This document shows positions 13,697-13,986 of a DNA stretch of 15,907 nucleotides, piece after piece. The translations under genes were made by a program, and so were the position numbers. The notes beneath the pieces are model-generated. The model was not told where the DNA came from. It saw only the letters and a list, made by a program, of their open reading frames with translations, and made no database searches. The DNA comes from Escherichia coli (lineage in GTDB: Bacteria; Pseudomonadota; Gammaproteobacteria; Enterobacterales; Enterobacteriaceae). Position 1 is the first letter of the stretch. Each line of letters starts with the position of its first letter. The DNA lies in NCBI RefSeq assembly GCF_003334335.1, contig NZ_QOWQ01000058.1; one strand, given 5' to 3'.

Positions 13697-13986
13697 AGCC
13701 TCCTCCCGGGTCCAGAACGCACTCAGCCGGGTATGGTTCAGCCCATTTTTCCCGGCGTCTCATGCCGCAAATGTTAACTGCTGCCTGGTTAACATTTTCT
13801 GAAAAAGCCAGTTAACATTTTTTCCGCACAACAAACTGAATAATAAAGATAAAAACCGCAAAAATGCCCGGGCAGCCAGTTAACATGTTAACTGCCCTGA
13901 AACGGGAATTTTTTCTCTGCGTGAGAGGGGGCGCGGTGTCCAAAGCGATCGTTTTTTACGCCGGATGATACCCCCCCCGGGTTGGG
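13697..13986. other. Probable cos / packaging-recognition region between HNH endonuclease and terminase small subunit
   Basis: 290-bp non-coding interval at the position where HK97-like phages carry cos (established HNH-cos-TerS arrangement). Contains clustered GTTAACAT motifs, an AT-rich stretch and a C8 tract. Exact cosN nick sites cannot be read from sequence. Confidence 0.4.
13768..13894. repeat. Cluster of five CAGTTAACAT / ATGTTAAC motifs, including a perfect 18-bp palindrome CAGTTAACATGTTAACTG (13877..13894) and an inverted pair with 9-bp spacer (13771..13795)
   Basis: Motif copies at 13771..13778 (inverted), 13788..13795, 13811..13818, 13879..13886 and 13885..13892 (inverted); counted by eye. 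Confidence 0.7.

Follow-up and report, generated by a model that had tools for sequence, protein, structure and literature searches.

Short repeats between the HNH endonuclease and small terminase genes of an Escherichia coli prophage: a probable cosB-like array of small-terminase recognition sites

The subject of this report is an array of short repeated motifs in a 15,907-nucleotide (nt) stretch of Escherichia coli DNA (NCBI RefSeq assembly GCF_003334335.1, contig NZ_QOWQ01000058.1), referred to throughout as the window. The array lies among phage packaging genes, in a 290-base pair (bp) gap between the genes for an HNH endonuclease (13987-14352) and the small terminase subunit, TerS (13133-13696), both on the minus strand, which is where an earlier note on this sequence had placed it. 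The flanking genes are all on the minus strand and run from lysis genes, past a divergent DUF3950 gene, through HNH, the gap, TerS, the large terminase subunit (TerL), a 645-amino acid (aa) open reading frame annotated in relatives as 'major capsid protein' or 'capsid and scaffold', and portal, to tail genes. The HNH protein (121 aa; phrog_589, E 1.8e-44) carries the HNH annotation in phage BP-4795. TerL (11475-13136, minus strand; 553 aa; phrog_9, E 9e-146) is of the HK97 type, with 23% identity to HK97 gp2 over 489 aligned residues in BLASTP (E 7e-11). TerS (187 aa; phrog_641, E 1.8e-68) is the proposed binder of the repeats. The HNH gene directly upstream of terS-terL, with cos (the cohesive-end site) in the gap, is the arrangement of an HNH-dependent packaging module of the HK97 type.

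Five copies of GTTAACAT occur in the whole window, at 13771-13778 (minus), 13788-13795 (plus), 13811-13818 (plus), 13879-13886 (plus), and 13885-13892 (minus). They span only 122 bp (13771-13892), a clustering that random placement would produce with a chance of about 2e-8 by simple arithmetic. In dinucleotide-preserving shuffles of the window the mean count was 0.29 and the maximum 3, so that none of 200 shuffles reached five. The two copies nearest the HNH gene overlap in inverted orientation and form the perfect 18-bp palindrome CAGTTAACATGTTAACTG (13877-13894). The other three sites are S3 (13809-13818, plus strand; CAGTTAACAT, or ATGTTAACTG in gene orientation), S2 (13786-13795, plus strand; TGGTTAACAT, or ATGTTAACCA in gene orientation), and S1 (13771-13780, minus strand; CAGTTAACAT in gene orientation). 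S2 and S1 make an inverted pair, AAATGTTAAC and GTTAACATTT, with 9 nt between the arms (13769-13797), and a repeat finder reports a three-copy direct family, AGCCAGTTAACATTTT, in the array. Between the palindrome and S3 lies a T-rich tract (13819-13876, minus strand) with 40% G+C, against 56% for the window. The earlier note had described five copies in both orientations within 130 bp, the palindrome, the inverted pair with its 9-bp spacer, and an adjoining AT-rich tract, and all of these are present; the CA prefix that it gave to the motif holds for four of the five copies, the one at 13786-13795 having TG instead.

The position of the cohesive ends can be read from a relative. In phage Lys8385Vzw, whose TerS is 95% identical to that of the window, PhageTerm gave 3' cohesive ends of 10 nt with cos = CGCCCCCCCT (PMC7946995). 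The Lys8385Vzw record ends in GGACACCGCCCCCCCT and starts with CTCACGCAGAGAAAAAATTCCCG (CTCACGCAGAG), and its junction differs by one substitution from window positions 13926-13935, which read CGCGCCCCCT on the gene (minus) strand. This 10-mer is, by homology to the Lys8385Vzw end, the cosN cohesive-end sequence with a 10-nt 3' overhang. The 'probable cos region' of the earlier note thus contains the counterpart of a mapped end and, judged from this homology, is a cos site with 3' overhangs. The record of Burkholderia phage Bcep176, a distant relative, starts exactly at the homologous 10-mer (CGCACGTTCC/CTCACGCGCAGAAAA). The left end of the packaged DNA (+1) would be base 13925, read downwards. 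Counted from this end, the array extends from 32 to 155 bp inside the DNA, with the palindrome at +32 to +49 (32 bp from the cos end, the position of R3 in phage lambda), S3 at +108 to +117, S2 at +131 to +140, S1 at +146 to +155, and the GTG start of TerS, behind the Shine-Dalgarno sequence GGAGGAGG, at +230. A longer TerS of 202 aa from an upstream CTG, as given for Lys8385Vzw (P0001), is unlikely, because the GTG at 13696 has GGAGGAGG ahead of it and lines up with the Met-Leu-Thr start of the family.

The nick-site core, GGACAC-CGCGCCCCCT-CTCACGCAGAGAAAAAATTCCCG (13903-13941, minus strand), includes an A6 tract at +12 to +17 (13909-13914). It is nearly invariant, whatever the motif class of the repeats, in E. 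coli, Salmonella, Serratia, Pantoea, Erwinia, Morganella, and Burkholderia loci and in satellite-like islands, and its part GGACACCGCGCCCCCT/CTCACGCRCAGAAAAAATYCCC is kept across the whole range from E. coli to Burkholderia. On the other side of the nick, 46-53 nt upstream, the gene (minus) strand has a run of 7-8 G (13971-13978). Such a run of 7-8 G stands at the equivalent position in nearly all enterobacterial relatives read, and it is shorter and interrupted in two betaproteobacterial loci. Whether or not it is part of cos, it could be a termination or nuclease-positioning element.

The T-rich spacer is a proposed bending element. It contains a core resembling the binding site of integration host factor (IHF), ATTCAGTTTGTTG (13829-13841, +85 to +97), with two mismatches to WATCAANNNNTTR. 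The ATTCA-N4-GTTR positions and the T run upstream of them are kept in the window and in the loci L088, L092, and L181, while the N positions vary; L181 has one mismatch to the consensus. Host IHF would probably bind at +85 to +97 and bend the spacer DNA.

The region is 93-99.5% identical to phages that convert their hosts to Shiga toxin (Stx) 1 or 2 production, for example BP-4795, 2851, and 1717. The 166-bp array is found in 1243 of 5426 complete E. coli genomes, in up to seven copies per genome; strain NCTC9112, for example, matches it with 100% identity. In 80 IMG/VR loci, which reduce to 48 distinct region variants, the sites are invariant in all 48, although the divergence among such close relatives is too low to be informative alone. 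More distant relatives are more telling. In L088, L090, and L091, whose TerS is 78-80% identical to that of the window, all five sites have changed from ATGTTAAC to ATGTTTAY. The L088 palindrome, TATAAACATGTTTATA, is still perfect, and S3, S2, and S1 read ATGTTTATAC, ATGTTTACAG, and CGGTAAACAT there. If the sites changed independently, at the mean divergence of the leader, such a coordinated switch at all five would be expected with a probability of about 1e-3 (arithmetic). L092 (TerS 65% identical) retains the GTTAACAT core at six sites with changed flanks, and its palindrome is 22 bp long (GGTGGTTAACATGTTAACCACC). The leaders of the window and L088 are 59% identical. The matching bases cluster in the nick-proximal core, the repeat sites, the T runs, and the IHF-like core, and the last 75 nt ahead of the TerS Shine-Dalgarno sequence show essentially no conservation between the two. 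The sites are thus conserved islands that change jointly, as would be expected of protein-binding sites that are under selection and undergo a change of specificity. The earlier note had proposed comparing the motif upstream of terS in related phages, and this comparison supports its reading: the sites are kept as islands and switch together between lineages.

Two forms of the region can be distinguished. In most members, the short cos, the start codon of TerS lies 38-39 nt past the nick, inside GTWAAC-ATG-TTAAC, and the Leu2 codon is TTA in the 14 short-cos loci that have an ATG start. The window palindrome is homologous to this start-codon element. Short-cos relatives have two or three more copies (ATGTTWAYACCCC and inverted GTAAACA) about 220 nt into terS, in the part that encodes a disordered linker, and in the class of relatives with GTTACAC motifs the KVT/VT repeat codons of the linker spell the motif in both orientations. 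Linker codons that spell the motif (VN, or KVT/VT repeats) lie about 170-240 nt into terS in L099-L114, L191, L178, L181, L183, L192, and L194; the terS reading frame of the window contains zero embedded copies. The long form is a minority, found in the window, L088, L092, L189, and L181, and has a non-coding leader of about 190 nt that accommodates the palindrome, the proposed bending tract, and the remaining sites.

The properties of TerS make it a suitable candidate for the binder. Its residues 2-57 match Pfam Terminase_2 (PF03592; E 2e-8), as in small terminases of the SF6/SPP1 type, and the family profile matches the DNA-binding domains of SF6 TerS (4zc3 and 2cmp). The AlphaFold model of the N-terminal domain (pLDDT 91-95) has helices at residues 4-14, 19-25, 33-41, and 44-55, followed by a disordered linker at residues 58-90. 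The helix-turn-helix (HTH) domain occupies residues 1-57 (13526-13696, minus strand), with a recognition helix at about residues 29-41 (SAKTARVKGSQLA).

The sequence of this helix and the sequence of the repeats vary together. Nineteen TerS homologues were aligned. With loci drawn from one genome per species and from an exact-protein look-up, the TerS residues of 27 loci were then compared with the numbers of each hexamer within 330 bp downstream of the nick. Among the 19, the N-terminal domain is highly conserved and varies mainly at residues 30, 32, 35, and 38, in or just before the third helix. TerS with T32-V35-S38 goes with GTTAAC (five, five, six, two, and three copies in the window, L093, L092, L107, and L111), and S32-C35-S38 with GTTTAT/GTTTAC (L088, L189, and also L185). 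T32-V35 with Trp, Cys, or Tyr at residue 38 goes with 4-7 copies of GTTACA(C) (L178, L181, L183, L192, L194), such elements carrying AAAGTTACAC behind the same nick-site core. TerS with S35 goes with mixed GTTTAT/GTTTAC/GTTAAT (GTTWAY) together with GTTAAC at the start codon (SP-016, L099-L114, L191). The helix thus reads KTARV in the window and KSARC in the lineage with ATGTTTAY sites. A code of one residue (Thr32 for GTTAAC, Ser32 for GTWAAC) was ruled out, since loci of the Ser35 class combine GTTTAT, GTTTAC, and GTTAAT whichever residue stands at position 32.

The association also predicted new cases. Helix variants were listed among 120 homologues and four new loci were fetched, three of which carried a prior class prediction; all three predictions, made from the helix before the DNA was read, matched. 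L189 (P0066), which has C35 in a TerS only 47% identical to that of the window, shows the perfect palindrome ATAAACATGTTTAT followed by four ATGTTTATACCC-type copies, with six GTTTAT/ATAAAC hexamers in all. L192 (P0110, Y38) and L194 (P0120, C38) both carry AAAGTTACAC, as predicted. The fourth locus, L191 (P0081, T32-S35-S38), belongs to the mixed Ser35 class.

On this evidence, we consider it likely that the array is a cosB-like set of recognition sites read by the small terminase, and that the cos system to which it belongs depends on HNH and leaves 3' overhangs. TerS had been named the likeliest binder in the earlier note, by comparison with cosB R sites, and it remains so, because the motif class tracks TerS residues 32, 35, and 38 in the 27 loci, including elements without an HNH gene. 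The description of the binder as a 'dimeric HTH protein' lacks support: TerS proteins with an SF6-type domain form roughly nonameric rings (PMC9611059), and the layout of the sites therefore need not reflect dimers.

The proposed mechanism is as follows. During late growth, the HTH domains of oligomeric TerS would bind the palindromic double site at +32 to +49 and the three sites at +108 to +155. The T-rich spacer, probably with host IHF at +85 to +97, would bend the DNA, so that one TerS assembly could contact both groups of sites and anchor TerL and HNH on the adjacent conserved core. TerL is presumed to nick at cosN, and HNH is presumed, by analogy with HK97 gp74 (PMC11331095), to be an accessory nuclease for cos cleavage. 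Nicks 10 nt apart, at 13925/13926 on the gene strand and 13935/13936 on the other, would leave the 3' cohesive ends, and packaging would start at the left end and run in the direction of terS and terL. The position, conservation, and co-variation of the sites are observed; that TerS physically binds them, that IHF bends the DNA, and which nuclease cuts which strand are what we infer. The array may act in initiation, termination, or both.

Several points weigh against this reading. All the evidence on the binder is comparative. TerS and the sites are 40-230 bp apart, and linkage alone gives some association; several of the 27 loci share ancestry, which leaves about 3-5 independent switches; and the Ser35 class is untidy, with GTTTAT, GTTTAC, and GTTAAT side by side. 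The SF6 and SPP1 TerS proteins, which are related in structure, show weak DNA binding in vitro, with no clear specificity (PMC9611059). The IHF-like core departs from its consensus at two positions. The termini were mapped in a relative, and the window element may be a defective prophage.

A different protein, whether HNH, the divergent DUF3950 product, or a late-gene regulator, might bind the repeats, with TerS reading only the conserved core. HK97 TerS needs one short site near the nick (+15 to +29; PMC11331095), and an A-tract lies here at +12 to +17. The HNH gene is the immediate neighbour, and its product, too, differs between motif classes (the L088 and L091 proteins are 78-88% identical to that of the window). 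The small DUF3950 gene (14394-14594, plus strand), divergent from HNH, encodes an N-terminus, IRFPNHIIEQINIALE, that looks like a ribbon-helix-helix strand and helix; of the relatives whose terS and sites are identical, some have the gene and others lack it. The comparison of L088 and L091 separates these candidates from TerS: the two have identical TerS and sites, yet different HNH proteins (78.5% and 87.6% identity to the window HNH) and a different state of DUF3950. The GTTACAC class, moreover, is shared by a Hafnia phage that encodes HNH and TerL itself (L194) and by islands that lack both genes (L178-L184, L192), where the class of motif still matches the island's own TerS. The motif therefore follows TerS, not HNH or DUF3950. 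As to a regulator, late genes of such lambdoid phages are read through from a Q-dependent late promoter, and the gene strand of the gap has no promoter-like or terminator-like site. BP-4795 (57.9-kb genome, first 50 kb searched) has six copies of GTTAACAT, five of them in the homologous region, and no second cluster in those 50 kb, for example near a regulator gene. The comparative data thus disfavour both alternatives that the earlier note had allowed, the HNH enzyme and a transcriptional regulator, and we regard binding by such a protein in place of TerS as improbable.

The islands deserve a description of their own. L178-L184 and L192, from E. coli, Salmonella, and other enterobacterial contigs, are satellite-like and carry primase or AlpA, small open reading frames, and a capsid-like gene; they have no HNH or TerL, and the same nick-site core is followed by AAAGTTACAC repeats. 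Their TerS is Terminase_2, and its C-terminal half resembles that of the window TerS. They look like satellites of phages with the same packaging module, although their gene order differs from that of published cf-PICIs. The idea that a satellite TerS redirects a window-type helper to another site is weakened by the GTTACAC class in L194, which has its own HNH and TerL; the islands may instead copy a helper of the GTTACAC class.

The inverted pairs could also act as hairpins, in a late mRNA leader that controls terS translation, or as DNA cruciforms, in which case the changes between lineages would be compensatory. Both pairs do keep their complementarity in L088, L092, and L189 despite the sequence change. 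However, the leader RNA does not fold unusually well (z = -1.04; 30 of 200 shuffles fold at least as well), and pairing leaves unexplained the single sequence common to both stems and the unpaired S3, the runs of direct repeats in L189 and the GTTACAC class, and the tracking of TerS helix residues by the motif. We find this explanation very unlikely.

Just as unlikely is the proposal that the copies are non-functional relics of a duplicated ancestral terS start (ATG-TTA-AC...), left by the insertion of the leader of about 190 nt. In most relatives the homologue of the palindrome contains the TerS start codon. The gene strand from S2 to S1 (13771-13797) can be read as ATG TTA ACC AGG CAG CAG TTA ACA TTT GCG GCA TGA (MLTRQQLTFAA*), which resembles the TerS N-terminus MLTTQKRKFALA. 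The likeness may go back to a duplication of the terS 5' end, or it may be coincidental and dictated by the motif, since ATGTTAAC encodes Met-Leu-Thr. Relics, however, would not be expected to stay invariant in 48 region variants, to stand as islands in a leader otherwise 59% identical to that of L088, to change jointly in the L088 lineage, or to be kept in 1243 of 5426 genomes. An origin by duplication of the terS start is nevertheless plausible and is compatible with a present function. Finally, a promoter or terminator can be dismissed, since the gap has no terminator-like site and its sole promoter-like match is on the plus strand, antisense, and built from motif copies (9 of 12).

Among known packaging systems, the proposed TerS array resembles cosB of lambda in layout. 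Lambda cosB consists of R3, I1/IHF, R2, and R1, bound by gpNu1 (PMC4669245); we measured R3 at 53-64, R2 at 109-120 (inverted), R1 at 155-166, and Nu1 at 191, and found the DNA separating R3 from R2 to be AT-rich, in agreement with the published description. As in lambda, several short repeats of mixed orientation, here the proposed TerS sites, lie a short way in from the left end (no more than about 170 bp downstream of the nick, and upstream of terS), an AT-rich tract, here a proposed bend element with an IHF-like core, separates the first site from the second, terS follows directly downstream, and the spacing is nearly equal. In contrast to lambda, TerS in the window has a Terminase_2/SF6-type HTH rather than the winged-HTH dimer of Nu1, the ends, as mapped in Lys8385Vzw, are 10-nt 3' rather than 12-nt 5' overhangs, and an HNH gene stands beside the terminase. 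Two copies make up the first site and form a perfect palindrome, there are five copies instead of three, and the motif sequence is unrelated. The array would therefore work like cosB without being a member of the lambda cos family, to judge from TerS type and end chemistry. Lambda-like phages have either a complex cosB (lambda, Monarch) or a simple one (N15) (PMC4669245), and the window family likewise splits into long (complex) and short (simple) cos. The short-cos loci SP-016, L099-L114, and L191, with one nick-side site and copies about 220 bp away within terS, parallel the simple cosB of N15 (R3 and rR2 in terS; PMC4669245). Unlike N15, the window is of the complex form, its sites all lying in a non-coding leader, and its proteins are unrelated to N15 TerS.

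The gene order HNH - cos - terS - terL and the TerL type are shared with HK97, and so probably are the 10-nt 3' overhang (mapped in Lys8385Vzw) and a TerS site downstream of the nick, on the terS side; HK97 has a 10-nt 3' overhang and requires the HNH protein gp74 for cos cleavage (PMC11331095). HK97 TerS binds a single 15-bp site at +15 to +29, threading the DNA through its ring (PMC11331095). HK97 has no repeat array and its terS starts at +50, whereas the window has a Terminase_2 protein and a five-copy array at +32 to +155, and no similarity between window TerS and HK97 gp1 was detected (E 0.91). HK97 is thus ruled out as a direct model for TerS, by the lack of sequence similarity and the different site layout. 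With the pac systems of SPP1 and SF6 (G1P), the window shares the family of the TerS DNA-binding domain. SPP1 TerS is reported to make multiple contacts around the cut site (PMC9611059). However, SPP1 and SF6 package by the headful mechanism and have no cohesive ends, TerS touches their DNA on either side of the cut, and its specific binding has been hard to show in vitro. In the window the ends would be defined, by homology to Lys8385Vzw, and all clear sites are on one side of them. Headful packaging does not fit the window either, as the close relative Lys8385Vzw has defined cohesive ends.

In the literature that could be searched, which excludes subscription-only papers, the string GTTAACATGTTAAC is absent and no cos or TerS site is described for Stx phages of the window type. 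A terminase site at such a position would be expected by a specialist, and the finding is of moderate surprise. Its value lies in the combination of natural specificity variants (two or three helix residues), clear repeats, and a mapped terminus, which makes recognition by SF6-type TerS testable. The array is present in prophages that include Stx1- and Stx2-converting ones and would thus define a packaging signal that governs the spread of Shiga-toxin genes; arrays of this type may also govern the mobilisation of satellite-like islands with the same nick-site core. A lambda-like cosB layout would have arisen in an unrelated terminase system.

A wider reading is put forward tentatively, as somewhat short of probable. 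Packaging specificity may be a portable module of two parts, two or three TerS recognition-helix residues (positions 32, 35, and 38) and a matching repeat of 8-10 bp behind a universal nick-site core, with the repeats often inside the terS frame (the ATG-TTA-AC start, VN or KVT linker codons), so that phages and satellites would pass on and exchange protein and target together. If true, this would give a simple readable specificity code for a class of TerS whose DNA recognition has resisted biochemical definition.

Motif-like sequences are also found upstream of the nick in some relatives. A hexamer (GTAAAC, GTTAAC, or GTCAAC) lies about 34 nt upstream in 8 of the 15 short-cos relatives read (SP-016, L099, L100, L101, L103, L108, L112, and L114), at -73 from the terS start in L099-L108. 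It roughly mirrors the downstream site and continues as GTAAACAT in three relatives; the window equivalent is degenerate (GTAAAAAAC, 13950-13958). In L111, from Morganella morganii, GTTAAC-type motifs (GAGTTAACCGGTTAATTGCCGGGTTAATTGC...CATGTTAACTGAGG) lie about 100-160 nt upstream of the nick, at the 3' end of the HNH gene, an upstream rather than downstream cluster that sets L111 apart from all the other loci. In prophages of the PPompW type (e.g. LC567822), similarity to the window ends at about 13974, within the G/C run upstream of cos, and the IS110-family element ISEc20 is annotated in place of the HNH side, which would split cos-terS from the HNH gene.

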